A stretch of 64,000 nt of DNA from Klebsiella phage vB_KpM_FBKp24: the sequence record MW394391.1. The stretch is one strand, 5' to 3'. The notes below the pieces were generated by a model that saw only the letters and a program-made list of their open reading frames with translations, had not been told where the DNA came from and searched no databases. Position 1 is the first letter of the stretch. Every line of letters starts with the position of its first letter. This document shows, piece after piece, positions 22,591-63,675 of the stretch. A program made the position numbers and the translations under genes.

Positions 22591-24348
22591 TCAAATCCAT
22601 TGTGCCGCACGTTCACGGATAGTACGAATACTTTCCAGAATCTTCACATCGCCGTTCAGGTAAACTGTACGCATCGCGTCTCGCTCACTTCCGCGCAACG
22701 TTTCGTACTGCTCCCGAGTCAGATCGTCTTTCAGTGTTAGCGTTCCATCATCTTCACGATAGACAATCAGATACCCTTTTGCTGACTTCTTAGTACCGTC
22801 GTCAGTTTTAGGGTTCTTCGCGATGTTGTAGTGTTTACCGTTGACTTTACCGGCGGTTGCCTTCATGGCGATGCCCAGAGTGTCGCGAGTCACAAACTGG
22901 AACTCGAAACTCCCTACCCCAAAGACAACGTTAGAGCTACAGAATCCATTCTCTTTCAAACGGGAAAGGATCCGTGTCATGGTGTTGATGTTGATCGCAT
23001 CGCCATAGATCAAACCGACGTGCGGATCCAGCTCTTTATACCCAGCGGCATTTGTGGTTCCGCCGAAGATTTCCCAGAGTATCTGTACTGCACCCTTCTG
23101 CTCTTCGATAGAAATAGGTTTCCCTGTTTTAGTCGAATAGAATTGACCATCAACACAGAAAGATTCGAAATTACCAGACGTAGCATTTTGAATCGCGACA
23201 AATTTCGTAGCATCTAAAGCAGAAGCTCCCCCTAAAACGACCATCTCTTGGGAATTGTGATTATCGCCGTCCCAAGTGTATCCGCAGAGGATATGGTACG
23301 GATTCCCGGAATCTGGACGATAGACCAGTTTACCGTCACGCGCCATAATCGCATCTTTGTTTGCGATAGCTTTGGTGGTGATGGTGTCAAAGAAGTCATT
23401 CGTATCACTGACGAAGCTGAAAACGCCAGAAGGGTAAACTTCCGTGATCAGGCGTCGTTGGAATAATTCCTCCGCCTTCGAGAGTAACTCCGCTTCTGTG
23501 ACATTAGCGTATTCAGGGGTCGCCTTCAGCTCCTCTGCGTAAACTGCAATATTCAGACAGGTTACGCTGTGTTCTGTGGCTGGGACACTACCAGCGATTT
23601 CCGAGACCGATACGTCGCCTTCTGGATTATAGAAGCGATTCGCGGTCCAGACCGAAGGGAAGCTGTCGCTCCCTTTGAAATAGATCAGCTGACCTACTGA
23701 GCTGTTCGCATCGTCAAACATCCCCGACATTCCACGTAACGCGAAGTTATGTGCCTGGTAGTCAATGAACGCTTGCGCCGCACCCGTCTCGTTAGCGTAC
23801 TGCTCCAGTACACGGCGGAAGTGTAACGCTTTCGTTGCCAACACGCACGGTTTCCAGAGTTCGTTACTCCAGAGGTCTTCGAAGTAACCGGTCAGCCACC
23901 CAAAGCCGTCGACAGTGTTTTCAATCGTCAGGAATGGAACACGAATAGGGACTAATGACCCCTCCGGTACCGCACGAATTTCGAGCGGGATATAACCCAG
24001 TTCGTGCAGCTCTTTCAGATGCGTCGATTTCACCACGCCTTTACCCAGAACCCCGTCCATGTATTCGAGGTATTCAGCCTCTACCTGATTAAACGGCGTT
24101 TTGAAGAAGTTATCAAAACTCCCGACCAACCAGCGGAGCACTAAACGCTGCAGACCCATAAATACCGAACCGTCAAAGTCCAGTGGGGTATTGAAGTACG
24201 TGTGACTTCTGGCCGTCAGGTTTTCAAAGAAGCTGTCGGTACCCAGCGGTTGTTGGTTGATGTGCCCGGTTTTATAGGCGTCACAGAGCAGGAATACCAG
24301 CGGATCTTCGGTATAGAATTTTGGGTCTTTCAGTAAAGGATTGGTCAT
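22591..24348 (-). CDS. nadV: nicotinamide phosphoribosyltransferase family protein (NadV/Nampt-like; possibly Namat of NARP1)
   Basis: Nampt-family length and overall similarity. Adjacent and overlapping (ATGA) with a Prs-like gene. Confidence 0.8.
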   Translation of the reverse strand: MTNPLLKDPKFYTEDPLVFLLCDAYKTGHINQQPLGTDSFFENLTARSHTYFNTPLDFDGSVFMGLQRLVLRWLVGSFDNFFKTPFNQVEAEYLEYMDGVLGKGVVKSTHLKELHELGYIPLEIRAVPEGSLVPIRVPFLTIENTVDGFGWLTGYFEDLWSNELWKPCVLATKALHFRRVLEQYANETGAAQAFIDYQAHNFALRGMSGMFDDANSSVGQLIYFKGSDSFPSVWTANRFYNPEGDVSVSEIAGSVPATEHSVTCLNIAVYAEELKATPEYANVTEAELLSKAEELFQRRLITEVYPSGVFSFVSDTNDFFDTITTKAIANKDAIMARDGKLVYRPDSGNPYHILCGYTWDGDNHNSQEMVVLGGASALDATKFVAIQNATSGNFESFCVDGQFYSTKTGKPISIEEQKGAVQILWEIFGGTTNAAGYKELDPHVGLIYGDAININTMTRILSRLKENGFCSSNVVFGVGSFEFQFVTRDTLGIAMKATAGKVNGKHYNIAKNPKTDDGTKKSAKGYLIVYREDDGTLTLKDDLTREQYETLRGSERDAMRTVYLNGDVKILESIRTIRERAAQWI

Positions 24349-25235
24349 TTCACGCGTCCATCTTTAGCGGTTAAATAGGATTGGGTTGGTAACCCGTCGT
24401 CGGTGATGTTTTCCCACCACACGTTAGTCGAGAAAATCTGATCGAAGGCAGCGGAAAGCTCGCCTAGTCCTTTCGAGAAAATACCGTGAGTCACGAAGAG
24501 ACTGAGCGATTTCGGGCTCTGAGTACTGAGCTTTTTCGCCAGCTCAGTGAAGGTCCACCCACCATCGCAAATGTCATCAACAACCAACAGATTACGACCT
24601 TCGATATTGTCGTTGTCCAGTAGCGTAATGTCGAGGATATTGCCGGTTTTGGTATCGCGCTTTTTGTTTGCATAAACGATAGGCGCACCACCCAAGAGTT
24701 TCGCCAGCTCTTCAGTTTTCTTCGCAGCGCCACCGTCAGGGGAAACTAACACGACGTTATTCTCCCGAATCCAATTGGCCAGGAGATTAAAGACTATTTT
24801 GGACTGCTCCAGAACGACGAGGTTTTTGATCAGGGCCGGGGTGACGTTAGAGTGCGGATCGTGTATCAACACTCGGTCTGCTTTCAGGCTGTTGAACAGC
24901 TCTGCGAATACGCCGAGGGAGAACGATTCTCCTGCATTACACACGCGGTCTTGGCGTGCGTACGGGAAATACGGTACGGTTAAATGAAGTTCTGTTTTCG
25001 CCGTATATTTACCAATACGACGAATAGCATCGACCAGCAGCAGTAAGCGGACTGCCTCACTGGAAGATTTGATACTTCCTTCTATTTTAACGATACCAAT
25101 ATCGTGCGGAGGAAGACCGTGGCGATTAATTGCAATATGTTCTTCCCCGCCCGGGAACGTTAAGTTTTCATAAAGGACGGGTTGTCCATCGAACGTAACT
25201 TTAAACATTGTAACCCCTTTAAAAATGGTAAACAA
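24345..25235 (-). CDS. ribose-phosphate pyrophosphokinase family protein (Prs-like; possibly ADPR-PP synthetase Adps)
   Basis: VPYFPYARQDR and the PRPP-binding loop LLVVDDICDGGWT. Confidence 0.8.
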   Translation of the reverse strand: MFTIFKGVTMFKVTFDGQPVLYENLTFPGGEEHIAINRHGLPPHDIGIVKIEGSIKSSSEAVRLLLLVDAIRRIGKYTAKTELHLTVPYFPYARQDRVCNAGESFSLGVFAELFNSLKADRVLIHDPHSNVTPALIKNLVVLEQSKIVFNLLANWIRENNVVLVSPDGGAAKKTEELAKLLGGAPIVYANKKRDTKTGNILDITLLDNDNIEGRNLLVVDDICDGGWTFTELAKKLSTQSPKSLSLFVTHGIFSKGLGELSAAFDQIFSTNVWWENITDDGLPTQSYLTAKDGRVK

Positions 25236-25256: not shown

Positions 25257-25796
25257 TCAGCGTGTTATCGGATTCTGGACTTTCACGTAGGTGGAAAATC
25301 GACACCGTTCGTGCCAACTAAACTCGTGAGTTTCGAGTACCCAACCCTTATGGACCGTAGTATAAGAGAGTAGTTTACCGAGCTCCTGAATAAGGTCGAT
25401 GTCTAACTTTATATTACCGTTGGAGTGAATGGGGATTTCCGTGACGTAGATCTTCTGTACACGATCGATCAATTGTTTGTAGATACTGACCCCTCCGCAG
25501 ATAACAACCTCGTTGTAGCCTCTTCTAGAGGCATCTACGGCGATATCTTCGAATGAGCTGTAGGCAATGATATCAGGGATAGATTCGAATTGAGAAGGGT
25601 TACTTGTCAGAACGTAGTGGGTACGTCCCGGTAAAGCCCGTCCTATTCCTTTTGCTGTAGTAGAGCCCATGACAATCGCTTTATTTTTGGTTTTCCTGAC
25701 GAACCATTGCATATCTTCTTCAGAACGCCAAGGGAGTTTATCGTCTTGACCAATGACGAAATCAAGATCGTGTGCTACGATGAGAGAGAAAATCAT
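25257..25796 (-). CDS. frd: dihydrofolate reductase
   Basis: N-terminus IVAHDLDFVIGQDDKLPW, and VMGSTTAKGIGRALPGRTHYVLT. Confidence 0.9.
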   Translation of the reverse strand: MIFSLIVAHDLDFVIGQDDKLPWRSEEDMQWFVRKTKNKAIVMGSTTAKGIGRALPGRTHYVLTSNPSQFESIPDIIAYSSFEDIAVDASRRGYNEVVICGGVSIYKQLIDRVQKIYVTEIPIHSNGNIKLDIDLIQELGKLLSYTTVHKGWVLETHEFSWHERCRFSTYVKVQNPITR

Positions 25797-42724: not shown

Positions 42725-44029
42725 TTAGTTCAGTTTCCTGCGCTCCTGTACGACAATCTCCCCTTCTTTCAGGTAGATTTTCTTACGCGGTTTACGCAGG
42801 GCTTTCGCCAGCGAGATGTTTTCTGAAGGCGTGACTTCGAAAGCCGGGAGTCCAGCAGCAGCGCGAGCCTCAATGGCTTCCATCGGTGTAAGCAGACGGA
42901 AATGTAATGGTTCCCCCATGTAATGACGACCATCACGCATTAACGCCGGTTCGATCTGAGTTTTGTCAGTCAGGTTAGTGGTGATGATCATTTTACGTGT
43001 AATAGCGCTTCCTACGCCATCGGTTTCGTTCAGCAGTTCAGCCATCATTTCGTTACCATGGCTACGTGGTGCGATCAGAAGATCACCGTCTTCTACGATA
43101 ATCACCGGGAATGCGGGTTCTTTCCTTTTTACCCCAATTTCTACAGTGGGAAGATTAGGTTGAGTTGCCATCTGGTCAAATATTTTACGCTCTTTAAACA
43201 AAACATCGCGGCCTGCGCCGTTAATGACCTGCGCTTTCTCCATGTAATTGTCACTGAAGTTGAAGATAGAAGAAATGAAATCTTTGTATTCGATCACTTC
43301 CTTTTTCTTCACGTAGATCGGCATGAGATTCAGCGCTGTGGCCGCAGAAGAAATAGCCGTGGATTTCCCGGTACCGGGTTCGCCCATCAGGATCAGTACT
43401 GTTTCATCGGAAGCGATAAAGTCTTCGATGAGGTTAACAATCCCACCGTCAAGGTAGGGGTAAAATGCGTTGTGAGTATGGCCAGAGTGCTGAATTTCCT
43501 TTTTCTTCAACCCCAATCCCTCACCAAACATATTTTTCTCAATGACGGTCTCGTAATAGTAACGACTGTCGTCTTTTGGCGGCTCCGTCGTGTCAAGTTT
43601 GATGTTTTCACGGACAGCCGCCCATAAGGCGTCATAGAGATCTTTTGACAGAATACCAGAGAATTGCAGTAGCGTCTTCTCCCCGCCAAGCACACGAAGA
43701 AAACCGACAGGGCGATTGTAGCGGTCCAACGCGATAAACTGGTCGTCGTCGTACTGAAAGAAACCGTGTTTTTCCAGGAATACGGAAACCCACTGTGTTT
43801 CCGAGAAGTAGTGGATAGACGCGTTTATGTAGTCGCTGGAATCAAGACCAAAAATTGGTAATTGATTGGCGGCCAGAAAGTGACGCACCATATTTTTTGG
43901 AGAGAGCTCATCATTATCGTTGCCGACCAATGCAGCGAATGCATCATAAGCCTCAGCGAATGAATCAAAAACGTCATTCAGTAATTTGTGAGAGCGAGTG
44001 AGATTTGCTACAGCATTAGAATAAGACAT
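42725..44029 (-). CDS. AAA+ ATPase (BCS1-like family)
   Basis: Walker A GEPGTGKST and second region of homology ITTN..EPALMRDGR. Confidence 0.75.
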   Translation of the reverse strand: MSYSNAVANLTRSHKLLNDVFDSFAEAYDAFAALVGNDNDELSPKNMVRHFLAANQLPIFGLDSSDYINASIHYFSETQWVSVFLEKHGFFQYDDDQFIALDRYNRPVGFLRVLGGEKTLLQFSGILSKDLYDALWAAVRENIKLDTTEPPKDDSRYYYETVIEKNMFGEGLGLKKKEIQHSGHTHNAFYPYLDGGIVNLIEDFIASDETVLILMGEPGTGKSTAISSAATALNLMPIYVKKKEVIEYKDFISSIFNFSDNYMEKAQVINGAGRDVLFKERKIFDQMATQPNLPTVEIGVKRKEPAFPVIIVEDGDLLIAPRSHGNEMMAELLNETDGVGSAITRKMIITTNLTDKTQIEPALMRDGRHYMGEPLHFRLLTPMEAIEARAAAGLPAFEVTPSENISLAKALRKPRKKIYLKEGEIVVQERRKLN

Positions 44030-46954: not shown

Positions 46955-48199
46955 TTACCCCTTCACGCAGACTATTTGTTTCAACGTAAAAAGAACTTCC
47001 ACGAGATCGTCTTGCGAACGCATTACATCGTCAATGTTCTTATACGCTTTTGGTGTTTCATCGATGACATCTTTGTCTTTGCGGCATTCGACGCCTTCAG
47101 TGTCACGTATTTGATCTTCTACTGTGAAGACACGTTTTGCTTCTCCACGGGACATCAGACGACCGGCGCCATGGGAACACGAGCAGAATGATTCTGAATT
47201 CCCTTTCCCGCGTACCACAAATGTTTTTGCACCCATCGACCCGGGAATAATAGCGAGATCGGTTGTCCTGGCTCTGACCGCCCCTTTACGGGTAACAAGG
47301 ACGTTTTGATCAAAGTGATTTTCCAGCGCAACGTAGTTATGATGACAATTGATGGCGGTCACTTTATTCTCGAAGGGTTTTTGTAAAACCTTATGCAGCG
47401 CAATCAGTGTTGCATTGAGCATAATGGCGCGGTTTACAGCCGCGAAGTCCTGTGCCCATTGCACAGCTTCTAGGTAGTCTTTGTAGTAGACCGACCCTTC
47501 CGGTAAATAAGCCAGGTCGTCATCAACTAAATGGATAAAGAAACGCGCCATTTCTTCCTTTGCTTTCTCAATGAAGAAACGACCAATTGCGTTACCTATA
47601 CCGCGAGAACCGGAATGAATTACTATCCAAAGTGAGTCATTCTGGTCGAGTGATAATTCAACAAAATGATTGCCGCTACCCAACGTTCCTGCGTGTGAAG
47701 CAAAACGGTTCGCGTTACGTAACAGAGTAGGGTATTTATCAGTGATGAACTTCAAGCGATTCTCTAATGAGACTAACTCGGCTTTAAGCTGTAGCGTTAA
47801 GTTTTGAGGGTCATTATTACCCCACGCTCCCCGGTCGTTCGGCCCACCGTTATCGGTACGGCCATGGGGGATGAGTTGTTCAATCGCGCTACGAATACCG
47901 GAAAGATCTGTTGGTAAGTCCTCGCGTTTTAACGATGTCTGTTGACCCACCAACCCGCAACCAATGTCAACACCAAGCGCAGCAGGAATAATGGCCCCCT
48001 TTGTTGCAATGACAGAACCTATTGTCGCACCCATCCCCCAGTGGACATCGGGCATGACTGCGATATGCTTGAAGATAAACGGTAAGGTAGTGAGGTTATG
48101 AAGTTGTTTTTCTGCCTGCTCTTCCACTGGGACAAATTTTGTCCAAGATTTAATGTTGACTTTGTCACCTTTAATAAAAACAATATTTGAATCTGACAT
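46955..48199 (-). CDS. rtcB: RNA-splicing ligase RtcB
   Basis: MPDVHWGMGATIGSV. NCHHNYVALENH (conserved His-rich active site). ~414 aa. Confidence 0.9.
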   Translation of the reverse strand: MSDSNIVFIKGDKVNIKSWTKFVPVEEQAEKQLHNLTTLPFIFKHIAVMPDVHWGMGATIGSVIATKGAIIPAALGVDIGCGLVGQQTSLKREDLPTDLSGIRSAIEQLIPHGRTDNGGPNDRGAWGNNDPQNLTLQLKAELVSLENRLKFITDKYPTLLRNANRFASHAGTLGSGNHFVELSLDQNDSLWIVIHSGSRGIGNAIGRFFIEKAKEEMARFFIHLVDDDLAYLPEGSVYYKDYLEAVQWAQDFAAVNRAIMLNATLIALHKVLQKPFENKVTAINCHHNYVALENHFDQNVLVTRKGAVRARTTDLAIIPGSMGAKTFVVRGKGNSESFCSCSHGAGRLMSRGEAKRVFTVEDQIRDTEGVECRKDKDVIDETPKAYKNIDDVMRSQDDLVEVLFTLKQIVCVKG

Positions 48200-51704: not shown

Positions 51705-53096
51705 CTAACCCACTTTTTTCATAGTAGAATAACTGACCGCTTCCACGGGTTTAGTGACATCATATTCCCGCAAGGCAATTTCAAAGGTCTCAGGGCTATG
51801 TTTATTTAACATGAACAACGCCTGTACTGAGGCACCCGGTAAAGGCGGGAAAGGAACTGGACTACGGGGTTCTGCATCAGGAAACGCCATTTTGAAGAAG
51901 CGGCGAATCTCTTTGTCCCCCAGAACTTCAACCTCTACACGAATGTCAATTCTACCATCCCTTAGAATTGCATCGTCCAGTTTCTCAGGGTGATTCGTGG
52001 TCAAGAACACAATGACATCATTCAGACGCATTACGCCATCTAGTGCGTTGAGGAAATCAGACAAACTCCCATTCAGGTATTCGTCCATTGCCTTGTCGTC
52101 TGATTTCGTTTCTTCTAATGTCCCCGGTACCCCGTGAGGCATTTCGATAACATTCAACCCAGACGACTCTTTTTCCTTTTCTTTTAATTCAACTATTGTC
52201 TTTTCTTTACTGCGTGCTTTCGTAAAAGAGTAAGTATCAATATCCTCGATGATGACAACACCACCCGCCGCGCGCTGGAATAATGCCTGATATTGTAATC
52301 CGCCGCTCGGTTTAAGGGTATGAATGTTACGACCTAAAGCCCCAGCCAGTGCGGAAATAAGACTGCTCTTACCAGTGCCAGGTAGCCCATAAAGTAATAC
52401 TGTAAATTTATAAGGTAATCCCCGCGAATGGTACCACTCTTTACTCCGACTAAATTCAAAGACGGGTTCAATCAATCCTTTTTGTACATTATCAGTAACA
52501 ACAATAGTGTCCAGGCTCCGCTTAGGGAGACGGCAGAGGTATTCCCAATTGGCGGTATTGTTGACAAATGCACCGACTGTATTTTTAGTGTCACTTTTCA
52601 CCATGAACGCATCCATCAGTTCGAGTATTGCCTTATGGCTTCGCCCAAACTTACTGATACTCAACCGGTATTTAGAAGCATTAGACGCATTGGCGTCTAT
52701 TTCAATGATTTTAAATACAAAGAGCGTACCGCGATAGAAAAAGAAATGAGAACCCACACCCGGACCTACCGCGCCGTCCGTCCCACTACTTTCCCCATCG
52801 ATAGTAATCGTTCTGCTCCAGTGAAACCAACTGTTCAATGAGAACCAATTAAGGAAGGCAGTGTACTGCTCTGAGTTATAATTAGTCCAGTTGGTGCTGG
52901 CAGTATTGAAAATCAAACTGGTAACGAATTGCCTTTTAACCCACTGAATCACCGCTTTGGGGGTTTTGATTAAACCCCAACCGATTGCGCCTGAGACAGC
53001 TAAAGAACTCGCAGTAACAATCGCGTTCTGTGCCATGGGGTAATCTTTAAAGTTAGACAATATATGGTCGTAAAACGACATTAGCTGTTCAAGCAT
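51705..53096 (-). CDS. AAA+ ATPase, BCS1-like (463 aa)
   Basis: LLYGLPGTGKSS. LNALDGV..VIVFLTTNHPEKLDDAILRDGRID. Confidence 0.8.
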   Translation of the reverse strand: MLEQLMSFYDHILSNFKDYPMAQNAIVTASSLAVSGAIGWGLIKTPKAVIQWVKRQFVTSLIFNTASTNWTNYNSEQYTAFLNWFSLNSWFHWSRTITIDGESSGTDGAVGPGVGSHFFFYRGTLFVFKIIEIDANASNASKYRLSISKFGRSHKAILELMDAFMVKSDTKNTVGAFVNNTANWEYLCRLPKRSLDTIVVTDNVQKGLIEPVFEFSRSKEWYHSRGLPYKFTVLLYGLPGTGKSSLISALAGALGRNIHTLKPSGGLQYQALFQRAAGGVVIIEDIDTYSFTKARSKEKTIVELKEKEKESSGLNVIEMPHGVPGTLEETKSDDKAMDEYLNGSLSDFLNALDGVMRLNDVIVFLTTNHPEKLDDAILRDGRIDIRVEVEVLGDKEIRRFFKMAFPDAEPRSPVPFPPLPGASVQALFMLNKHSPETFEIALREYDVTKPVEAVSYSTMKKVG

Positions 53097-54172: not shown

Positions 54173-54646
54173 TTAACCCTCAAACCGATAGACGATAATT
54201 TCAAAATCAGTATCCGAAAAAACCCGCTTGATATTTTCACTCACGCGCTCCCAGTCACCACCTGCTAACCCGCACCCCAATAGAGGGAAACCGACTTTTA
54301 AAACCCTCCCTTCCTTTTTCAGGATAGAGGCCATTAGTTTCAACGCCAGATAAAGAGCAGCGTAATGGGTTTTATAGTCAGGGTGCGAATGTTCGTGATG
54401 AAATTGACCACAAAGGTTGAAGCCCCATTGATTCCCATTCTTAGCAGCAGTTAATTTCCCCAAGCGTTTGTTGTAAGGGCGCTTATCGGAAAAGTAAGAT
54501 TCCGCTAACCAAGGCAATGCTTCGAATATTTTAACAGCAATACCGCTCTTAGCGACCCCAAAGCAATTGACTTGGTGGGCTATGACGTCAACTTCCTTAT
54601 TAAGAAAGGCTTCAATCAAATCCCCTTTTATTTCAGTGTATTTCAT
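54173..54646 (-). CDS. macro domain protein (ADP-ribose binding/processing)
   Basis: VDVIAHQVNCFGVAKSGIAVKI and GFPLLGCGLAGGDWE match macro-domain signature regions. Confidence 0.65.
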   Translation of the reverse strand: MKYTEIKGDLIEAFLNKEVDVIAHQVNCFGVAKSGIAVKIFEALPWLAESYFSDKRPYNKRLGKLTAAKNGNQWGFNLCGQFHHEHSHPDYKTHYAALYLALKLMASILKKEGRVLKVGFPLLGCGLAGGDWERVSENIKRVFSDTDFEIIVYRFEG

Positions 54647-54664
54647 AGCCCGCTCTCGCCGTGG

Positions 54665-55282
54665 TTAATTGATGATGAATTTACATTTTTCGAGGTGGTA
54701 TTCTTTCCCGCCAAAGCAGAGTTTCTTAACGTAATCCGGACGAGGGAGATTAACGTTCTCTGTGTAGGCGTTATGGGATACTAACGACTTGTTAACGACT
54801 TCGCCTTTGTTGTATTCAACGAGCCGACCGGGGAATTCTTGGGAAAAACCAAACCCCGAGAATTTCAATTTTACATGCGAATGAAAAGAGAGATTTCGCC
54901 AACCTGGGAATTTCAACCCTTTCACGTGGGCAGCGATAAAACGAATCAACGCAGTGTAAACTTTACCCAGTTCACCCGTGGTAATGACTTCGTCTTCGTT
55001 ACCGAAACGGAAGATGACTTTGGAATCGTGACCATCTTTATTACGGTACCAGTCGACGACAAAACGAGAGTAGTAACCGTAGAGACCATTCTCTGGCGTA
55101 CTGCGGTTACGGTAAGACTGCGCCGTATCGGAGTCGTACCGGTAGCACGTATTGTGCTCAAAAGGCTGACCCCGTCTGAAACCGATGAACTGCGCGAGCT
55201 GGACCGCCTGGATTAATGTCAGGTGTACGATCGTACCTAACTTGTTAGTAAGAATAAAGATAGGACTTGAAGCTGTTTGCAT
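54665..55282 (-). CDS. hypothetical protein (205 aa)
   Basis: ORF. Confidence 0.5.
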   Translation of the reverse strand: MQTASSPIFILTNKLGTIVHLTLIQAVQLAQFIGFRRGQPFEHNTCYRYDSDTAQSYRNRSTPENGLYGYYSRFVVDWYRNKDGHDSKVIFRFGNEDEVITTGELGKVYTALIRFIAAHVKGLKFPGWRNLSFHSHVKLKFSGFGFSQEFPGRLVEYNKGEVVNKSLVSHNAYTENVNLPRPDYVKKLCFGGKEYHLEKCKFIIN

Positions 55283-55287
55283 TCGTT

Positions 55288-55887
55288 TTACTCCTGCAGC
55301 AGTTTGGTTATTTCACCAATGAACTCGGAATGGTCTTCTATTTTATCTCGACCAATCTCCGAGCCCGTAATTTGATCATCAACATAACGAGAGACCAAGG
55401 CGTTGATTTTCCCAGCGGGACTGGAAAGGAATTCATCTGACTCAGCGTAATCAGCATTCCAGTTACGAATATAGAATGAAGGGTTAAAGGTCTCTGTCGT
55501 TCGGAAGTCAGGGAGTTTACCCACCATTAAAAGTTCCAACGAAGGAGAATAATGTACACCGTATTCAGTTCGACCGGTGTACTCGTTAAGTTCTGCCTTT
55601 GCCCAAATATTAAAACTGTCTATAATCCATACCCTGCTACATTTTAGAGCAATCTCCCTTTTCCAATCAGCAAGCGGGCCGTCTTGTAACATCGCTGAAA
55701 TATGCTCGTCGCTCATTATGACTTCGTAATAGTTCCGCCGGTTGAAATCTTCTAATCTCCTTTTTAAAAGGGAAAACAGATTCTGCTGCTCGGCGCTGAT
55801 AAAAGCGTCGTAATACTTATTGGTAATAAGATCTCTTTCTACTTCTGACAGCGGTTCTTTAAGAAAACCGAGTTTTGTTCTGGACAT
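55288..55887 (-). CDS. hypothetical protein (199 aa)
   Basis: ORF. Confidence 0.5.
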   Translation of the reverse strand: MSRTKLGFLKEPLSEVERDLITNKYYDAFISAEQQNLFSLLKRRLEDFNRRNYYEVIMSDEHISAMLQDGPLADWKREIALKCSRVWIIDSFNIWAKAELNEYTGRTEYGVHYSPSLELLMVGKLPDFRTTETFNPSFYIRNWNADYAESDEFLSSPAGKINALVSRYVDDQITGSEIGRDKIEDHSEFIGEITKLLQE

Positions 55888-55896
55888 TTTTACTCC

Positions 55897-56304
55897 TTAA
55901 TTAAAGTTGAACACCAATCGTTCAGCGCCCGATTCTTTGAGGATGTTTAATTGTTCGAACCACCACTCCCCAAGATGTTCCCGCCAACTCGCCGTTACGC
56001 CTTCCCCTTCGGGAAGAGTACTTCTTCCATCGCCACTACGGTCTTCTACGAGCGTATCGTAGTCAAAGTCCAGTAACACTTTGACATCCAAAATATAGTT
56101 ATAATCGTAATCGTAACTGATAGGTCTCCCTGCCTTTTCCCATTTATACGGCAAAGGAGGAACGCCAGCCATATTCCTTACGTCAGCGAGCCAACCGTAA
56201 ATAAAGTAGTTCTGGAAATCAAACCAATCCGCTCCTCCAGAAATAATCTCCCATTTCCCTTCTTTGTTTTTCTTCTCAAACCGTCCCTCGATATAAGCGC
56301 CCAT
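55897..56304 (-). CDS. hypothetical protein (135 aa)
   Basis: ORF. Confidence 0.5.
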   Translation of the reverse strand: MGAYIEGRFEKKNKEGKWEIISGGADWFDFQNYFIYGWLADVRNMAGVPPLPYKWEKAGRPISYDYDYNYILDVKVLLDFDYDTLVEDRSGDGRSTLPEGEGVTASWREHLGEWWFEQLNILKESGAERLVFNFN

Positions 56305-56307
56305 GTT

Positions 56308-57525
56308 CTAGTCTCCGTAGTAATAACTGAAGGTGAAGGTAAACCCGTACTTGGTGTATTCCGGTGAAATATGGAAGATCTGTGCGGGTTTACTTTCCTT
56401 CATAGCGGGGATACGTTCTTTTAATGCATCCAGTGCGATGTCCACTTGGGTGTTACTTAGTTCAGAAAGAGTTATTGTCGCGCAATAGGTAGCGGTGAAT
56501 ATATCTTTTCTATTCCAGCCGACCGCGTGAGAGACAGATTTACCGTCGTCCCAGTCTTTAACATACTGGCGAAGTGTTTGTTCCGTAAAAGACAAATCTA
56601 ACTTCGGTACACTGATCATCTTTTCTTTAATTAATGAGACTAGCGCCCGAGTCAACGTAATTAAAGAAACCTGTTGTACTTGACCGCTGGCGCCTGAATT
56701 TAATTTTCGGATAAAATGGCCAATGAGTTGAGGGAGTTTATTGATCATTTTATTAAAAATAGTATCGTTAGGTGGTTTTACGGGAGGGAAGCAAATTGAC
56801 AATATAACTTTATCCCGATTACCCCCAATTCTTTCCACAGAGTATTCCGCGTAGAGCGAACCGTCTTCCCCGAAAGAAAGTTCAACGTCCTTTCTAACAG
56901 CTGAGGAACCTATCACATCTCGCGCGTCATCAAAAGTGATACTATAGGCTATCGGGGAAACGTTGTTATCTTTGCTCCGCCGGTAATTTGTAAGGACACT
57001 AGTAACCGCGAGGTGCGGGGCGTTGAGGTCCTCTAGGGTAGCGACGATGTCTTTCATTTTAGTCTCCTGTTTATTACTGAGGGAATTATCGACGAAGGTA
57101 AAAATAGCTTCTATTTCTTCGACGGGGTTAATAACATGACTACGGCTCATGTACGAGGTTATTAACCTATTTAGTTTTTCGATCAGTTCTTTTTCTGAGG
57201 CAACACCCACGTAACCTTTTTTCTGCCACTCAAAACGAATATCGAAATGAATAGAGTAGCGATCATTGTCAGGAAGTACTGGTCTTGTAAAATGAGTGAC
57301 AGTACCGTCTTTAATTACAATATCGATACGAACCTGATCTATCGCGTCGCTAATGAATTTTGGAACACTCCAGCTATATTCTAGCTCAGGATTCGGGGTA
57401 GTGGGTTCGCAAGACAGTGTAAATTTCGGGAAAGGAGAATAACTGACATTGGCTTTAAATAAATAAAATTTACCTGCTTGAAAATCTTTAACAATTGAAT
57501 CGTTCTGACCTTTTGAATAGTTCAT
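56308..57525 (-). CDS. hypothetical protein (405 aa)
   Basis: Long ORF. Confidence 0.6.
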   Translation of the reverse strand: MNYSKGQNDSIVKDFQAGKFYLFKANVSYSPFPKFTLSCEPTTPNPELEYSWSVPKFISDAIDQVRIDIVIKDGTVTHFTRPVLPDNDRYSIHFDIRFEWQKKGYVGVASEKELIEKLNRLITSYMSRSHVINPVEEIEAIFTFVDNSLSNKQETKMKDIVATLEDLNAPHLAVTSVLTNYRRSKDNNVSPIAYSITFDDARDVIGSSAVRKDVELSFGEDGSLYAEYSVERIGGNRDKVILSICFPPVKPPNDTIFNKMINKLPQLIGHFIRKLNSGASGQVQQVSLITLTRALVSLIKEKMISVPKLDLSFTEQTLRQYVKDWDDGKSVSHAVGWNRKDIFTATYCATITLSELSNTQVDIALDALKERIPAMKESKPAQIFHISPEYTKYGFTFTFSYYYGD

Positions 57526-57551
57526 TTTGTCACCTCACACTTTTACCGTAA

Positions 57552-57579
57552 TAGAGTCGGAGGAACTCCTCCGACTCTA
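57552..57579. other. 12-bp-stem hairpin (TAGAGTCGGAGG/CCTCCGACTCTA); the T-run is on the plus side only
   Basis: Perfect stem. Followed by GGTTTTATTTTGG on the plus strand. Confidence 0.4.
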
Positions 57580-57584
57580 AGGTT

Positions 57585-57893
57585 TTATTTTGGTCTTACA
57601 CGTAGTTCGAGTTTCACTTTCCCGATGGAATCATTTTCAATGACAATACTTCGCCAGAGACCGATCTCCCCGCCATAGGCGTAAAAGCAGATCTCGCGTT
57701 CAAGAATGTCGAAGAGTCGAGTAACCGCCCTCTTCTCATCTTCGTTGAACTCAAAGCATGGATCAAGCGATTTTTCTCGATGTACCTTTACGTTTTGAAC
57801 CAGTTCTACAGCATCGTTAAATTCCGTAGAAACTAGTCCGGCGTGAACGGCGTTATGTACGTAAACTACTGTCTCCAGTACACAGGTCGTCAT
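57585..57893 (-). CDS. hypothetical protein (102 aa; start MTTCVLET)
   Basis: TAATG overlap with the upstream small ORF. Confidence 0.45.
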   Translation of the reverse strand: MTTCVLETVVYVHNAVHAGLVSTEFNDAVELVQNVKVHREKSLDPCFEFNEDEKRAVTRLFDILEREICFYAYGGEIGLWRSIVIENDSIGKVKLELRVRPK

Positions 57894-58024
57894 TAGATTA
57901 CTCCACCCCAAACAATCGCCGCCGCAAATAACCACCAACCCCAGCTATGTTCCCCGTGAAAGAAACCATAGCCTCCAATACCGATTAACACTAAACTTAA
58001 AATACCGGCCATGAAATATTTCAT
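57893..58024 (-). CDS. small membrane protein (43 aa, MKYFMAGILSLVLIGIGGYGFFHGEHSWGWWLFAAAIVWGGVI)
   Basis: ATGA overlap with the TS stop. Two hydrophobic helices. Below the ORF-track cutoff. Confidence 0.4.
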   Translation of the reverse strand: MKYFMAGILSLVLIGIGGYGFFHGEHSWGWWLFAAAIVWGGVI

Positions 58025-59412
58025 ACCGACACCTCTATTTTAATCGCAGGGTGGTGTTTGTATTCCGTGAAGACGAAGTCCTCAAAGGTGAGTTCAAATA
58101 ATCCTTTCTTTGGAACGACCACCGCCGAATCGTAATAGTGCTCAGAACGAACAAAACATTCTACTGGTTTATACGGCTCACGAGTAAGCTGTAATTTCAC
58201 TTCCTCGATCTGGTTAAGGTAGATATGGACGTTAGTCAGATTACCAACCAACTGTTTTGGCGCCATCCCCAACTCATGGGCAAAGGCCAGTAACATGAAT
58301 GCGTAGAACGCCTGGTTATACGGTTCGCCGACGGGTAAGTCCACGGAACGCATTGAGTACTTAAGACTCAACCACTGCGTAGGGACATGATTCTCAGTGA
58401 GCCACTCCGCTTTACGTTCTGCCGACATCTTAGGTTGATTACAATGTTCTTCTGCGTAGCAGTCGGACATGTGATCTTCCCAGAGATCCTGGAAGTACGG
58501 GTTAGCGTTATTCGCGCACCAATCCAAACGCTCGCGCAGCGTCATCTCTTCCACGTAGAACTCTACGAGGAAATGACAGGGAGTGAGGCACGGTTTTCCG
58601 TTGATAACGTTTTCCTGCGGTGTCACCTTTACCGTCTTAGTTCGCGGTACCCCGTGACTGGCCAGAAAATCTTCGCAGTTATCGGTCTTACCGTGATCTT
58701 CCAGGCGCGGCCAGAAGATCGCATAAAGGTCCGGGCTGTGGGTTTTTAAATGTTCCCACATCTCGTCATTAGTGAGAGTAACTTCTTTCGTTTCCTCTGG
58801 CATCCAGAGTGGGTTCCACGCCGAGATGAGAATCCGGCGGGATTCTGGATTGTTCCGCAGCAGGTCTAAAACATATGCGACTTGATCAACGCCTTTCTTC
58901 TTAAGCGGGTCTTCCGAGAAGTTTCGCCAGGCGCTACCATACGGCGCATTCAGATCATTTACGTGATGTGCGATTACCGAGCGCGTACGCGGTACGTTAT
59001 GCGAATCCAACCACACGTGACCCTCTTCGACTGGGCGAATAGAGATCTTCTTACTGAAGAACTCGATGTACGCATCTTCGTTGTTTTCTTCCAGCCAACG
59101 CAAACGCTCGTAATTCTCCAACTCCACTTCCGTAGAGACGTTTTCCTTCAACCGCCACGGCGCCCAGAAATCCCCTTTCCCGTCCTCGGTGATCATCGAC
59201 TCCATATGGAGCTCACCATTAAGGATAGAACGGAACTCTCGCCAAGCCAGTTTACGAGAAACAAACTTTGTGGTGAGTAACGGGAACTCACCTTTTGATA
59301 GATCGTATTTTAATCTGGCATCAAAAATACCGATAGTCCCTGTCCCGGTACGATCGCCGCGCACTCGTCCTGTTTCCAAGACTTCCTGGAGTAATTCAAG
59401 GTATTGTTTCAT
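58021..59412 (-). CDS. thyA: thymidylate synthase homologue with three large insertions (463 aa)
   Basis: N-terminus MKQYLELLQEVL..GDRTGTGT. RRILISAWNP. The PCH nucleophile motif. YSMRSVD. PYNQAFYAF. C-terminus HHPAIK. Confidence 0.8.
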   Translation of the reverse strand: MKQYLELLQEVLETGRVRGDRTGTGTIGIFDARLKYDLSKGEFPLLTTKFVSRKLAWREFRSILNGELHMESMITEDGKGDFWAPWRLKENVSTEVELENYERLRWLEENNEDAYIEFFSKKISIRPVEEGHVWLDSHNVPRTRSVIAHHVNDLNAPYGSAWRNFSEDPLKKKGVDQVAYVLDLLRNNPESRRILISAWNPLWMPEETKEVTLTNDEMWEHLKTHSPDLYAIFWPRLEDHGKTDNCEDFLASHGVPRTKTVKVTPQENVINGKPCLTPCHFLVEFYVEEMTLRERLDWCANNANPYFQDLWEDHMSDCYAEEHCNQPKMSAERKAEWLTENHVPTQWLSLKYSMRSVDLPVGEPYNQAFYAFMLLAFAHELGMAPKQLVGNLTNVHIYLNQIEEVKLQLTREPYKPVECFVRSEHYYDSAVVVPKKGLFELTFEDFVFTEYKHHPAIKIEVSV

Positions 59413-59642
59413 TTATTCTCATTCTCCCCTATTTCAGTTAATTTCAACATCAAGTTATTGCGTGCGTTTAGCATAGTCTGTGTATTTTTAAAACCTATGC
59501 GCAGTTCACCACCGGAATAGAAGAGAACTTTAAAAAACGCATAATCGTTTCGGTCTTCTGGCCATGCCGGCCCAACAAACTTTATGTCGCTTAGATCAAT
59601 CATAAAACTTTGATCTGTACCATCGAGTATCGTAGTTAACAT
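59409..59642 (-). CDS. hypothetical protein (77 aa)
   Basis: ORF. Confidence 0.45.
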   Translation of the reverse strand: MLTTILDGTDQSFMIDLSDIKFVGPAWPEDRNDYAFFKVLFYSGGELRIGFKNTQTMLNARNNLMLKLTEIGENENK

Positions 59643-60031
59643 TCACTTTCCTCAGTAAAAATTTTATCGATGTACGGCGTTTTATTGACCCCAACAAATT
59701 CCCCGGTAAACCATCCGTCGGAGAGACGAACGATCTTGTAATAAAACATCCGGTTAAATCGCGTTCCGTTTTTCTTTGTGATCATGTTCGTTATTGCTGC
59801 CGGCAAACAAAAGGCACCAGACATGATCTTTCTTTCGTATCCTTTACCGACCCGGAATCGGAATTCTTCTGTGGTTGTATCAACCTCAAAGTCGATCGAT
59901 GAATACAATTCCGGTTGTAGGTCCCGGAAACCTGCGGAGAGATAACAGCTCCCACCAGGCATTAAGCGAAGGTAAATGCTCTTTTGTTTCAGCGTAAGCT
60001 TGGGAATATTCTCGAGTTTCTCAAAGGGCAT
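59636..60031 (-). CDS. hypothetical protein, paralogue of 61723..62133 (start MPFEKLEN)
   Basis: Shares MPF.K.. and IDFE..FRFRVG.GY.R...G.F.LP with the 136-aa ORF. Confidence 0.5.
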   Translation of the reverse strand: MPFEKLENIPKLTLKQKSIYLRLMPGGSCYLSAGFRDLQPELYSSIDFEVDTTTEEFRFRVGKGYERKIMSGAFCLPAAITNMITKKNGTRFNRMFYYKIVRLSDGWFTGEFVGVNKTPYIDKIFTEESEC

Positions 60032-60560
60032 CTGAGTTTGCTCCAAATTGGAAAGGTGAAAAGAAGTTGATAACCATTTCGACCTTTTCTTTGTCAATAA
60101 AGAACTTCCCAACTTCGTTATAGTCTGGGTCAAGGAAGTCGACGAGCCTTTCTTTAAAATACTCGCAAACCACATCGTTTTGTTTCATTTCACTGATGGC
60201 GGAGACTCTCAGTATAACTTCGCCTTCAATCTTGTTGATGTGGTAATTCACGGTGTACCCGCGCAGCGCGGTGTTGATTTCTCCAACATGGAGTGTTTCG
60301 ACGTAGAAGCTAGAATAGCCAAATTGACCATCCCAGTTTTCTTTTAGAACCAGTTCGAATTTCTCCTCGACTCTGCGCAGGATTTGCGTAAAATCTTTTT
60401 CAAGTTCAGGAATTACTTTTCTTTTACGCTCTTCTAATTCATCAACGTAAAGGAAAAGCTCTTTAAACTTATTCCCTCCGCGAGTAGAGAGTTCTTTTTC
60501 TTTTTTCAAAAACCAAAATATTTGATCGAGTTTCATTTTTATTCCTCCGTAATTTATCAA
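60021..60560 (-). CDS. hypothetical protein (179 aa)
   Basis: ORF. Confidence 0.5.
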   Translation of the reverse strand: MINYGGIKMKLDQIFWFLKKEKELSTRGGNKFKELFLYVDELEERKRKVIPELEKDFTQILRRVEEKFELVLKENWDGQFGYSSFYVETLHVGEINTALRGYTVNYHINKIEGEVILRVSAISEMKQNDVVCEYFKERLVDFLDPDYNEVGKFFIDKEKVEMVINFFSPFQFGANSDAL

Positions 60561-60582
60561 AATAAAACAAGACGGAATAAAA

Positions 60583-60610
60583 AGAGAGGGGGAGATTCCC
60601 CTCTCTTTTC
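60583..60610 (-). terminator. rho-independent terminator
   Basis: AGAGAGGGG-GAGATT-CCCCTCTCT flanked by A/T runs. Confidence 0.7.
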
Positions 60611-61209
60611 TATTTACCCGTGCGAGTGTTTACCCAGGAAGACAAATGCTTCAGTTTGTCACGATGAGCGAGTAGCTTGCTCCAGCTTTTCTCGGGTTTG
60701 TTGGTGGAATCTCCAACTACCCTTTGATAGGCGTAGACGATTTGATCGTAAGAAACTTCAGCCGGCATCCCGCCAGTGGCCGTACAGAAGAGAGGCATGA
60801 CAACCTCAGAAATTTTCCTGTCGGGTGTCATCTTATTGAAATAAACAATTTGACAGAATGCAGCGAGGGCCACACGGTAAGCGATATCTTTTTCTTTTGC
60901 GGGGCTAGGAAAACGCATAGTCGGCGCGTAGCACAGCTGTAGATTACCGCCTAAAGAAACAGTAATAGCTTGGCCCACCGGCATTTCTTTACCCCAGAAA
61001 CGCTCGATAGCAAATTGTACTGCATCTTGAGAATCGGGAAATTTATTCGCTATAACTTTGTCGAAGCCGCCATCCATGATCCCGAATGAATTACCTGGCG
61101 TAATAACGCAGTCGTAATCTTTTCCCGGGATCAGCGCATTAAAGTCGCCTTTCTGGTAATGTTGGCGGGGTGAAAGATTTACTCTGTCAACGATCTTTAG
61201 ATTAAACAT
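60610..61209 (-). CDS. macro-domain-like protein (second copy; 199 aa)
   Basis: ITPGNSFGIMDGGFDKVI resembles the macro-domain Gly-rich ADP-ribose-binding loop. Confidence 0.45.
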   Translation of the reverse strand: MFNLKIVDRVNLSPRQHYQKGDFNALIPGKDYDCVITPGNSFGIMDGGFDKVIANKFPDSQDAVQFAIERFWGKEMPVGQAITVSLGGNLQLCYAPTMRFPSPAKEKDIAYRVALAAFCQIVYFNKMTPDRKISEVVMPLFCTATGGMPAEVSYDQIVYAYQRVVGDSTNKPEKSWSKLLAHRDKLKHLSSWVNTRTGK

Positions 61210-61213
61210 TTTA

Positions 61214-61699
61214 TTACCTTCCTAGATTAAAGAGTGATTGTAAAGGGCTCAGTAATGGTTTCTTGTAGTTTCGATAGACGATCTCGATTGATAACTTTGC
61301 TCCGGATTTGGAGGTCAAAAGAAGTACATCTGAAATGTATCGGGTTTTCAGGAGCTTCTTCTTCTGATAAATCTCAAGAACTTTCTCGGCTTTCTCGTCG
61401 ATAAGGTAATCGCTATCTAGCCTTACTCGAATTTCTTTCAGTGCATTAGTTCGAATCGCAAGTTGAAAGTCGATAGAGAGTCGAGGCGCTGTCACCTTGA
61501 CAGACCCTTTCTCCCCGATACCGTTCTTCAACTTCTCATGGAAAGCAACGCTGGCTGATTTGTCCCGTAAATATTCGGTGACTTCGTCTATCGTCTTGGA
61601 GATAACAGCGATCAGTGCGATCTCTAGACTTTGGGGTTCTTCTTCCACCGGTTCTTCAAGTGATTGAAACAATTTAGCAAGTGGGTCGGCTGAGGTCAT
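61214..61699 (-). CDS. hypothetical protein (161 aa)
   Basis: ORF. Confidence 0.5.
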   Translation of the reverse strand: MTSADPLAKLFQSLEEPVEEEPQSLEIALIAVISKTIDEVTEYLRDKSASVAFHEKLKNGIGEKGSVKVTAPRLSIDFQLAIRTNALKEIRVRLDSDYLIDEKAEKVLEIYQKKKLLKTRYISDVLLLTSKSGAKLSIEIVYRNYKKPLLSPLQSLFNLGR

Positions 61700-62570: not shown

Positions 62571-63109
62571 TAAACACTGTAGAAGTTGATCGCATGAATA
62601 CCGGAAGAGAGGGTATCAAGTTCCCCTAGGTCATCAGGGTCAATAAGGTTGACCTTTAACCCTGTCGCCAACAAACGTTTCAGATTGTAAGCCACGGCTG
62701 TCTGAGGAATCCGAAACGTAATCGCTTGTTGGTTTCTGAAGTGACTAACCAAATCGCGAGGGGCATCACCTAAACGTTCTAGATACTTAGCGAACGTTTC
62801 GCCATCTAACCCGTCTAACGACCACTGCCAAACGACACCGTCTGCCGCAACGACAGCCACTCCTTTATAACGATACGGTTTTTGGTATTCTCCCCATTTG
62901 ATACTCTCTGGCTGATAGCAAGAATTGTAATCTGTGATCCTCAGTTCTTCGCCAGGTTCTGCTTCATCGACCATTTCAGCAAAAGCGGGAAGGAGAATAG
63001 TCTCACCGGCAGCGTTTTTAGCATGGGCGACAATTTCACCCTCAGTGAGCCCATAAGCATCAGCTGCGTAAACCCCACGTTCAAACTTCAATTTTATCTG
63101 CTGAGTCAT
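62552..63109 (-). CDS. hypothetical protein (185 aa)
   Basis: ORF with a 4-nt overlap with the Tpt1 gene. Confidence 0.5.
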   Translation of the reverse strand: MTQQIKLKFERGVYAADAYGLTEGEIVAHAKNAAGETILLPAFAEMVDEAEPGEELRITDYNSCYQPESIKWGEYQKPYRYKGVAVVAADGVVWQWSLDGLDGETFAKYLERLGDAPRDLVSHFRNQQAITFRIPQTAVAYNLKRLLATGLKVNLIDPDDLGELDTLSSGIHAINFYSVYWVFTK

Positions 63110-63675
63110 TCTTTCTTTTCCTCTATTTTAAAACAGCCAACCGGAACGTGCCTGACTAACCAGACCCCGTTCAACGCTTTGTAGAACACGTAGCCGAGCT
63201 CAATTAATTTCTCGGCATCTACGCTCAGTACCACGAGAGAGCCTTTCTTAGCGTACCGTAAACCCACTAACCGCGCCGTCTCAATGTGATCGGTCAAATG
63301 GACAAACTGACGAGATTGCGGATTGAGTCCGTTCTCAAAAATGCTCTCTAAGTTACCCGATGCGGTACCGTGGTACAAAACCCTAGGAGGGGTCTCTTTG
63401 CTAAAAGACATTTCATTCACTGGGAAAGAATGCCCTTGTACCGCTCTGATTGCCGAAAGGTCTTTGGAAAGACTGAATCGTTTCTTGTCGTCTGTTTCAA
63501 CGACGTACATTAACTCCTCTAAACTGACCTCTTTTTTCTGCTCACTGAAAGCAGCAATAAGATCGTCGAGTTTTACATATCCAAATTCGTCCGGCGTTAA
63601 TTTCAATGCCTGAGGGCGATGACGTAAAACAAAACAGAGCGTTTTAGACAGTTTAATGGGGTCATTCATTAGCAT
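63106..63675 (-). CDS. kptA: RNA 2'-phosphotransferase Tpt1/KptA
   Basis: LSKTLCFVLRHRP. IRAVQGHS. LYHGT. FVHLT. NGVWL. ~190 aa, typical of bacterial KptA. Confidence 0.8.
   Translation of the reverse strand: MLMNDPIKLSKTLCFVLRHRPQALKLTPDEFGYVKLDDLIAAFSEQKKEVSLEELMYVVETDDKKRFSLSKDLSAIRAVQGHSFPVNEMSFSKETPPRVLYHGTASGNLESIFENGLNPQSRQFVHLTDHIETARLVGLRYAKKGSLVVLSVDAEKLIELGYVFYKALNGVWLVRHVPVGCFKIEEKKE

Follow-up and report, generated by a model that had tools for sequence, protein, structure and literature searches.

Two macrodomain proteins of different classes in a Klebsiella jumbo phage: a candidate Adpp-type phosphatase and a Macro2-type relative of yeast YMR087W

Introduction

Macro domains are found in 56% of jumbo phages (PMC9503650), and macrodomains as a whole have been arranged in a six-class scheme (PMC6500376, PMC6397177). 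In the phage family most relevant here, phrog_335, three proteins have been studied, namely PhiKZ gp104, T4 Tk.4 and Vibrio phage Gary gp137, and the Macro2 class has one studied enzyme, yeast YMR087W. Here, we describe two macrodomain genes, open reading frames (ORFs) 1 and 2, in a 64,000-nucleotide stretch of Klebsiella phage vB_KpM_FBKp24 (MW394391.1), the whole of which is called the window below. The window derives from a Klebsiella jumbo phage with a genome of ~300 kb; its nearest record is Klebsiella phage vB_KpM_Centimanus (94.5% nucleotide identity over 85% of the region), followed by Siatvirus-type phages such as KpLz-2_45.

The published functions of the phrog_335 proteins fall under two names. 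Gary gp137, named Adpp, converts ADP-ribose (ADPR)-1-phosphate (ADPR-1P) to ADPR in vitro, is needed to overcome the RES-domain defence system aRES, and supplies the rebuilding of NAD+ by NARP1; inactivating any of the three operon genes ends the anti-aRES effect, and primers for an H24A change are given in Table S4 of the same study (bioRxiv 10.64898/2026.01.28.702374). In that study Adpp was defined operationally, as lying within two genes of an Adps and Namat pair, a Klebsiella pneumoniae aRES was among the three systems assayed for defence, and aRES homologues were listed for Klebsiella genomes (bioRxiv 10.64898/2026.01.28.702374). PhiKZ gp104, named AdfM, strips the ADPR added by DarT2 from single-stranded DNA (ssDNA) in vitro and protects against DarTG2 (PMC13309987), and on DarTG2 hosts T4 Tk.4, which also bears the name AdfM, is conditionally essential (bioRxiv 10.1101/2025.11.20.689424). 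YMR087W is a phosphatase acting on Appr-1''-p (ADP-ribose-1''-phosphate) and is reported to lack de-mono-ADP-ribosylating (de-MARylating) activity (PMC6397177). For jumbo phages, a repair route consisting of KptA, a 2H enzyme and a Macro protein has been proposed (PMC7824862, PMC9503650).

Results

Fold and class of the two macrodomains

ORF1 and ORF2 both start with ATG and lie on the minus strand within a long co-directional gene array:

54173..54646, minus strand, ORF1: 157 aa, Poa1p/Adpp-type macrodomain, ALC1-like class, phrog_335
60610..61209, minus strand, ORF2: 199 aa, Macro2-type (yeast YMR087W-like) macrodomain

The initial annotation had read two distinct macro-domain proteins, each with a Gly-rich loop, from the sequence at exactly these coordinates, and both points held. 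The loops are G124-C-G-L-A-G-G-D-W132 in ORF1 and N40-S-F-G-I-M-D-G-G-F-D50 in ORF2, the latter together with a conserved G146, and the two proteins are distinct since their relation is visible at the profile level alone (hhalign 93%, 18% identity). The genes at the matching places in relatives are annotated as well, as a 'phosphatase' for ORF1 in Centimanus and as gp039 and gp047 in KpLz-2_45. AlphaFold models reached predicted local distance difference test (pLDDT) values of 91.7 for ORF1 and 94.6 for ORF2, and all top Foldseek matches of either protein in the PDB were macrodomains with a probability of 1.00; the predicted architecture of both is the three-layer alpha/beta/alpha macrodomain fold with conserved Gly-rich loops. 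In hidden Markov model searches, both proteins scored just below the Pfam gathering thresholds (ORF1 against Macro, PF01661, 19.1 bits with a gathering score of 22; ORF2 against Macro_2, PF14519, 26.4 bits with a gathering score of 27), but ORF1 matched phrog_335 with an E-value of 7.8e-42, several ORF1 homologues carry precomputed PF01661 matches, and 22 of the 24 ORF2-family members matched Macro_2 at E ≤ 0.01. From such folds and classes, and from the conserved residues, synteny and distributions given below, we infer every substrate and physiological role that is proposed here.

ORF1 belongs to the ALC1-like class beside TARG1, DarG and Poa1p, and ORF2 to the Macro2 class. The best PDB sequence matches of ORF1 were TARG1 (5e-7) and Mycobacterium tuberculosis DarG (6e-6), and Foldseek likewise ranked TARG1 on top (E 7e-12, template modelling (TM) scores 0.76/0.81), followed by DarG, BT1257 and Poa1p, the last with a TM score of 0.76. 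In both the PADLOC defence library (4.2e-12) and NCBIfam (8e-12), DarG was the sole match. Human TARG1/OARD1 and bacterial DarG are thus the best solved-structure matches (TM 0.72–0.81) and share with ORF1 the ALC1-like topology and a G-x-G-(L)-x-x-x-x-W loop 2, whereas the C-terminal DarT-binding domain of DarG is absent from ORF1. The ORF1 family was found by tblastn in 2,206 of 50,697 phage records (~4%), and ORF1 is a further member of this family with published functions.

Active-site signature of ORF1

The ORF1 signature consists of D9, H24, N27, G35-x-A37, G80-Q81 and P121 followed by loop 2, in which the family shows no variation at G126, G129 and G130 and almost none at G124-C125, L127-A128 and W132. 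The signature columns were taken from an alignment, and the tree was built by neighbour-joining. PhiKZ gp104 and T4 Tk.4 both fall in phrog_335 with ORF1, and the tree separates two clades. One unites DarG and gp104, which carry a P-T-K catalytic motif and have no His at position 24. The other, with the signature H24-N27-Q81 (H-N-Q), holds ORF1, T4 Tk.4 and all the NARP1-associated macros in Table S1 of the Adpp study. The column of the catalytic Lys (K80 in Taq DarG, K78 in gp104 and K84 in TARG1) is Gln81 in ORF1, and of the 38 aligned proteins of its clade, 37 have Gln there and one has Met. The TARG1 dyad Lys84/Asp125 is accordingly Gln81/Ala128 in ORF1, and a TARG1/DarG-type lysine catalysis was therefore ruled out for ORF1. 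The loop-1 Asn of DarG (N22) and gp104 (N23) corresponds to N27, which is invariant in the ORF1 family, and the essential His of Adpp (H24 in Gary, H23 in Poa1p) corresponds to H24, which is nearly invariant.

Within its clade, ORF1 agrees with Gary Adpp at 17 of the 19 signature columns, including His24, Asn27, Gly80-Gln81 and the full loop 2 (GCGLAGGDW), and the two proteins, both with a Poa1p-like fold and in the same PHROG, are 33% identical over their full length (72 bits, E 2e-21). T4 Tk.4 (L004 6923-7390) is 27% identical to ORF1 (41 bits) and 35% identical to Gary Adpp (77 bits); it has the H-N-Q signature in common with both, whereas its loop 2 reads GAGIGKGNW and contains a Lys. Like the AdfM proteins, ORF1 is a standalone protein of the ~155–160 aa size class from a virulent phage and keeps the loop-1 Asn, but it differs from gp104 and DarG in having His24 and Gln81 and in its clade, and from Tk.4 in loop 2. 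The nearest tree neighbour of ORF1 is the macro of the phage locus Privateer, where no NARP1 genes were present within the 9 kb examined. No trial of Tk.4 or of Gary Adpp on the substrate of the other is reported in the AdfM and Adpp papers. Because Tk.4 shares the clade of Adpp yet is linked to DarTG2, sequence alone is unable to separate the two activities.

A tie of ORF1 homologues to type II Thoeris, considered from the Migulavirinae paper, was rejected, as the macrodomain there is that of the host effector ThsA and not a phage protein.

A NARP1-like gene pair in the same phage

The phage that carries ORF1 also encodes an adjacent pair of genes resembling Adps and Namat, with an overlap of 4 bp:

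22591..24348, minus strand, Namat-like (Nampt-like) gene: Pfam NAPRTase and NAMPT_N matches
24345..25235, minus strand, Adps-like (PRPP-synthetase-like) gene: Pfam Pribosyltran match

Both are alike over their full length to genes of Pakpunavirus EM, the Adps-like gene to gp027 (43% identity, 8e-60) and the Namat-like gene to gp025 (36% identity, 3e-101), and the gene order in Pakpunavirus EM is Adps, a small ORF, Namat and an ORF1-type macro. Table S1 of the Adpp study (bioRxiv 10.64898/2026.01.28.702374) gives the counterparts in PAK_P1-type phages as Adps, Namat and macro, and the ORF1 relatives in these phages, at 38% identity, are the very macros that are listed there as NARP1-associated. 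The window probably carries NARP1 in the form of this Namat-like and Adps-like pair, because the pair resembles one from a Pakpunavirus whose type is listed as NARP1. Adps-like genes were found in 1,564 phage records (~3%).

Among 80 ORF1-family loci from IMG/VR, an Adps and Namat pair lay within 0.6–5 kb in nine. An Rnl-type RNA ligase was nearby in seven and RtcB in four (11/80 together), and Tpt1 in only one, the Siatvirus. Tpt1 was found in 96 phage records; with the ORF1 family in 2,206 records and this single shared locus, Tpt1 is unlikely to be the partner of ORF1, and a general coupling of Tpt1 to ORF1-type macros was ruled out. In Cronobacter phage GAP52, RtcB directly abuts an ORF1-type macro.

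ORF2 and the phage branch of the Macro2 class

ORF2 belongs to a known class, Macro2, and within it to an uncharacterised phage branch. A profile of the ORF2 family run against the whole PDB matched YMR087W (1njr) only, at 3.5e-11, and a single-sequence phmmer search with ORF2 gave 1.7e-6 for the same entry; Foldseek also placed 1njr on top, followed by DarG and viral macrodomains, with macroH2A1.1 also among the fold matches. The invariant motifs of the family are T-P-G-N40-S-F-G-I-M-D-G-G-F-D50, Y94-x-P-T-M-R-x-P and G146. ORF2 and YMR087W (Ymx7) have in common the loop P-G-N-S-x-G-x-x-x-G-G-F-D and the motif P-T-x-x-x-P, whereas ORF2 is ~85 aa shorter, phage-encoded and of moderate structural similarity (TM 0.58/0.48). 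The active-site residues proposed in the structure paper for 1njr are reportedly Asn80, Asp90 and His145 of YMR087W. N40 and D50 of ORF2, both invariant in its family, align with N80 and D90.

The ORF2 family occurs in 45 phage records, mostly of jumbo phages (PhiPA3 gp271, Noxifer, RTH11 and phiRSL1) and in part of temperate ones (Gifsy-1 and SEN4/5), and, out of 1.84 billion cluster representatives, 2,396 belong to it at E ≤ 1e-10; the contexts inspected were all phage-like. PhiPA3 gp271, the ORF2-type macros of the other jumbo phages and the 'macro domain-containing' proteins of Gifsy-1 and SEN4/5 are 29–37% identical to ORF2, and they differ from it in that none lies near Tpt1 and in that those of the P2-like phages are longer and lie in a tail-fibre module. 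PhiPA3 offers a parallel to the window, since it encodes, besides the ORF2-type gp271, a macro of a second class (gp108, AdfM), and has gp271 just upstream of a long thymidylate synthase. Given the PhiPA3 pair of gp108 and gp271 and the frequency of macro domains in jumbo phages noted above, two macros in one jumbo phage are unsurprising.

The PADLOC defence-system models gave no match for ORF2. Domain fusions were considered as a clue to ORF2 function and set aside as uninformative, the partners being mixed (WD40, SDR, DSP phosphatase/rhodanese and TPR); among these fusions there was no link to ADP-ribosyltransferases (ARTs), TIR or Sir2. An association of ORF2-type macros with NARP1 operons was likewise rejected, as Table S1 of the Adpp paper held no ORF2 motifs and no ORF2-family locus lay near Adps or Namat.

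Several contexts of ORF2 homologues were also recorded. In the P2-like phage SEN5 (L119 4050-4874), an ORF2-type macro of 274 aa is set between the genes for the tail fibre and for its assembly, with an overlap on either side, and such copies in the tail-fibre module of P2-like phages account for the 'tail protein' annotations of the family; this placing is compatible with delivery by the virion. On a 100-kb phage contig (L010 4801-9160), an ORF2 homologue has an RNA ligase (PF09414) on one side and a gene of the YAcAr/SLOG family on the other. The predicted ligands of SLOG domains are NAD+ and ADPR derivatives. An IMG/VR contig carries an RtcB, 60% identical to that of the window, at a distance of 3.5 kb from an ORF2 homologue.

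ORF2, its cassette and Tpt1

Tpt1/KptA consumes NAD+ and yields ADP-ribose 1''-2'' cyclic phosphate. In the window, a Tpt1 gene of the same orientation as ORF2 is found 1.9 kb upstream of it, and a further ORF adjoins the upstream end of ORF2:

61214..61699, minus strand, 161-aa ORF, function not assigned: directly upstream of ORF2, forming a two-gene cassette with it
63106..63675, minus strand, Tpt1/KptA RNA 2'-phosphotransferase: Pfam PTS_2-RNA 2.7e-42, NCBIfam 2.9e-58

KpLz-2_45 has a similar arrangement. In a 264-kb relative, whose ORF2 homologue is ~47% identical, Tpt1 is found 0.8 kb upstream of that homologue, with RlaP and an RNA ligase flanking the pair. The Tpt1–ORF2 synteny thus holds within the Siatvirus-like lineage, in the window and in the loci L003, L018 and L016, the last of which belongs to the 264-kb relative. 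The 161-aa ORF is 68% identical to KpLz-2_45 gp048 and is gained and lost together with ORF2, whereas it is absent beside the ORF2 homologue of the 264-kb relative; searches with it gave no family matches. The gene that stands in its place in Centimanus was considered as a diverged homologue and rejected, as there is no similarity.

The initial annotation had suggested the two macros as metabolic partners of Tpt1. This finds support for ORF2 within the lineage, where Tpt1 is 0.8–1.9 kb upstream, but not for ORF1, as seen from the record and locus counts above; for ORF2, too, a general Tpt1–macro coupling was rejected and the link confined to this lineage (2/25 loci). ORF2 is an accessory gene, and its link to Tpt1 is real but lineage-specific, on account of these locus counts, the small overlap of records and the absence of ORF2 from Centimanus, which are taken up in the Discussion.

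A Centimanus 'phosphohydrolase' gene (L001 25400-26128, past the window end) lies two genes upstream of kptA and could be a cyclic phosphodiesterase of the Tpt1 pathway. As a 2H cyclic phosphodiesterase it was rejected, since it gave only a sub-threshold HD/PDEase match of 20.8 bits.

Other features of the window

The remaining features referred to in this study are as follows:

25257..25796, dihydrofolate reductase (DHFR): immediately upstream of the NARP1-like pair
42725..44029, minus strand, AAA-ATPase ORF, 434 aa: insertion relative to Centimanus (1,452 bp vs 29 bp)
46955..48199, minus strand, RtcB RNA ligase: Pfam RtcB 4e-120
51705..53096, minus strand, BCS1-like AAA ATPase: BCS1_N and AAA domains, phrog_7485
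55288..55887, minus strand, 199-aa ORF, function not assigned: between ORF1 and ThyA
58021..59412, minus strand, thymidylate synthase (ThyA), 463 aa: two large inserts

Across the 64 kb, of which 80% aligns, the window and Centimanus differ by about a dozen indels or replacements. RtcB is a clean insertion of 1.2 kb when compared with Centimanus, in which the genes on either side abut, and the ORF at 55288..55887 is swapped in Centimanus for an unrelated 120-aa ORF (592 bp vs 359 bp), which makes another flexible site. The BCS1-like AAA ATPase is conserved at a distance of a few genes from an ORF1-type macro in the window as well as in the distant 264-kb relative (L017 13594-14970). The insert architecture of the long thymidylate synthase is common to the window protein (463 aa) and PhiPA3 gp274 (476 aa; L120 4348-5778), and a Macro2-type gene lies 0.6–1.2 kb upstream of the long thymidylate synthase gene in both phages; an I-TevI-like homing endonuclease interrupts thyA of the 264-kb relative (L016/L017). 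NadR and PnuC of Centimanus lie past the point that matches the window end. No tRNA genes were found in the window.

Discussion

The reading that we prefer, and whose chances as a whole we put at about even, is that ORF1 and ORF2 are two different ADPR hydrolases, ORF1 being of the Adpp type and ORF2 clearing the by-product of Tpt1. Both enzymes would set ADPR free from derivatives that carry a substituent at the 1'' carbon, and would in this way serve the heavy investment of the phage in NAD+. For ORF1, the best-supported role is that of a putative ADPR-1''-phosphate phosphatase feeding NARP1. It would most likely dephosphorylate ADPR-1''-phosphate that arises from host RES-domain NAD+ phosphorylases (aRES), and possibly also downstream of the phage Tpt1; the freed ADPR would be converted into ADPR pyrophosphate (ADPR-PP) by Adps, and Namat would then join ADPR-PP and nicotinamide to give NAD+. 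Because the NARP1 pair is 29 kb away, ORF1 would act in trans. The ADPR-1''-phosphate phosphatase activity raised in the initial annotation is thus retained as the likeliest predicted one for ORF1, but the substrate is likelier to come from host RES-type NAD+ phosphorylases than from Tpt1, and the likelier partner of ORF1 is the phage NARP1 pair, which that annotation had not included. A second and compatible role of ORF1 may be to remove the ADPR that DarT2 attaches to thymine in phage DNA, which Tk.4 of the same clade appears to do. The phosphatase and the anti-DarT2 reactions both break the bond at the ribose 1'' carbon. ORF2, on the other hand, would most likely clear ADPR 1''-2''-cyclic phosphate or 1''-phosphate left by Tpt1.

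Several observations weigh against this reading. As regards ORF1, the distance of ~29 kb and dozens of genes from the NARP1-like pair places it outside the two-gene neighbourhood by which Adpp is defined, and differs from the operon setting of Gary gp137; ~55 of the 80 ORF1-family loci are without NARP1 nearby; the Nampt-like gene is taken as Namat by resemblance, and NadR and PnuC in this phage group would suit a route based on nicotinamide mononucleotide (NMN); and T4 Tk.4, in the same clade as Adpp and 35% identical to it, is genetically tied to DarTG2. As regards ORF2, the column of YMR087W His145 is an invariant Tyr94; Tpt1 is nearby in only 2 of 25 ORF2-family loci; the phage records with Tpt1 (96) and those with ORF2-type macros (45) have in common only the Siatvirus group and a single uncultured phage; and Centimanus retains Tpt1 while an unrelated gene has replaced ORF2 together with the upstream 161-aa ORF. 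Moreover, no 2H cyclic phosphodiesterase, which is needed to open the cyclic phosphate (ADPR>p), was present among the genes scanned around Tpt1, the whole genome not having been scanned.

The anti-DarT idea of the initial annotation has a precedent, because the ORF1 family holds two proteins shown to counter DarTG2, and it can be put as a less likely alternative in which ORF1 is an AdfM-type orphan antitoxin that would remove the DarT2-added ADPR from ssDNA thymine, any phosphatase activity being irrelevant. DarG as the sole match in PADLOC and NCBIfam and the DarG structures among the top fold matches argue for it, as do the clade and H-N-Q signature shared with Tk.4, which is conditionally essential on DarTG2 hosts (bioRxiv 10.1101/2025.11.20.689424), and the activity of gp104, of the same PHROG, which clears DarT2 marks in vitro with a loop-1 Asn equivalent to N27 (PMC13309987). 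It is weakened by the active site, where the catalytic Lys of DarG and TARG1 is replaced by Gln81, by the position of ORF1 outside the clade of DarG and gp104, and by its greater closeness to Adpp than to Tk.4 (72 vs 41 bits), with a loop 2 identical to that of Adpp and different from that of Tk.4, for which no biochemistry has been reported. For ORF2, an anti-defence function independent of Tpt1, by which it would undo the ADP-ribosylation that a host ADP-ribosyltransferase defence imposes on a protein or RNA target, or else break down or sequester an immune signal derived from ADPR, seems unlikely, if worth keeping in sight. The family is almost wholly phage-borne, lies in accessory or early regions and is gained and lost between near relatives like other counter-defence cargo; it coexists with AdfM in PhiPA3, which argues for a non-redundant role; one homologue lies near a YAcAr/SLOG gene, and the N-x6-G-G-F-D loop 1 is similar to the N…D pattern that is catalytic in MacroD-type de-ADP-ribosylases. 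The placing in the tail-fibre module of P2-like phages would also fit virion delivery (PMC9503650). Set against this are the reported lack of de-MARylating activity in the only studied Macro2 enzyme (PMC6397177), the absence of a match among the defence models, fusions without a link to ART, TIR or Sir2, and the closeness to Tpt1, which is conserved in this lineage and points elsewhere. The anti-defence role suggested in the initial annotation is plausible.

A housekeeping role of both macros as partners in Tpt1-dependent RNA repair, in which they would clear ADPR-1''-phosphate after tRNA repair, we consider improbable. It is true that ORF1 and ORF2 are the phage counterparts of both yeast Appr-1''-p phosphatases, Poa1p and YMR087W, that Tpt1, RtcB and the two macros lie within 17 kb, that ORF1-family genes recur beside RNA ligases (in the 11 IMG/VR loci and in GAP52), and that a route of KptA, 2H and Macro has already been proposed for jumbo phages (PMC7824862, PMC9503650). 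Nevertheless, the ORF1 family is more than 20 times commoner than Tpt1 in phages and has Tpt1 near 1 of its 80 loci, and neither a ligase that leaves a 2'-phosphate nor a 2H enzyme was found in the window. By established enzymology, RtcB ligation leaves no 2'-phosphate for Tpt1 to act upon. It is very improbable that one or both proteins are non-catalytic readers or binders of ADPR; some macrodomains only bind it, for instance macroH2A1.1, a fold match of ORF2, but the catalytic-type residues H24 and N27 in ORF1 and N40 and D50 in ORF2 are strongly conserved.

A more novel proposal, which we hold to be rather unlikely, is that ORF2 is the founding phage enzyme of the Macro2 type, with its own separate function, and that the clade of ORF1 is perhaps bifunctional. 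On the one hand, ORF2 could close an NAD+ cycle, in which Tpt1 would spend NAD+ on RNA repair, ORF2 would make ADPR from the by-product, and NARP1 would rebuild NAD+. On the other hand, ORF2 could reverse or intercept an undescribed ADP-ribose-based host defence, and would then form a new anti-defence family beside the AdfM- and Adpp-type macros. The H-N-Q clade may combine an ADPR-1''-phosphate phosphatase with a thymine-ADPR DNA glycohydrolase, and such bifunctionality would reconcile the names Adpp and AdfM for proteins that are 35% identical.

The finding is real and mostly consistent with known biology. The names AdfM (T4 Tk.4) and Adpp (Gary gp137) fall on one clade with one active-site signature, and an Adpp-like gene unlinked from NARP1 suggests that the pathway has been under-counted. 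If ORF1 works as Adpp in trans, the resistance to RES-based NAD+ depletion that NARP1 and Adpp provide together (NARP1-AP) would be more widespread than the published estimate, which counts adjacent genes only, and this would bear on predicting which Klebsiella phages, including candidates for therapy, escape aRES or DarTG2. ORF2 offers a tractable entry to the uncharacterised phage Macro2 class, and the Tpt1–Macro2 pair provides a testable handle on the function of Tpt1 in phages.

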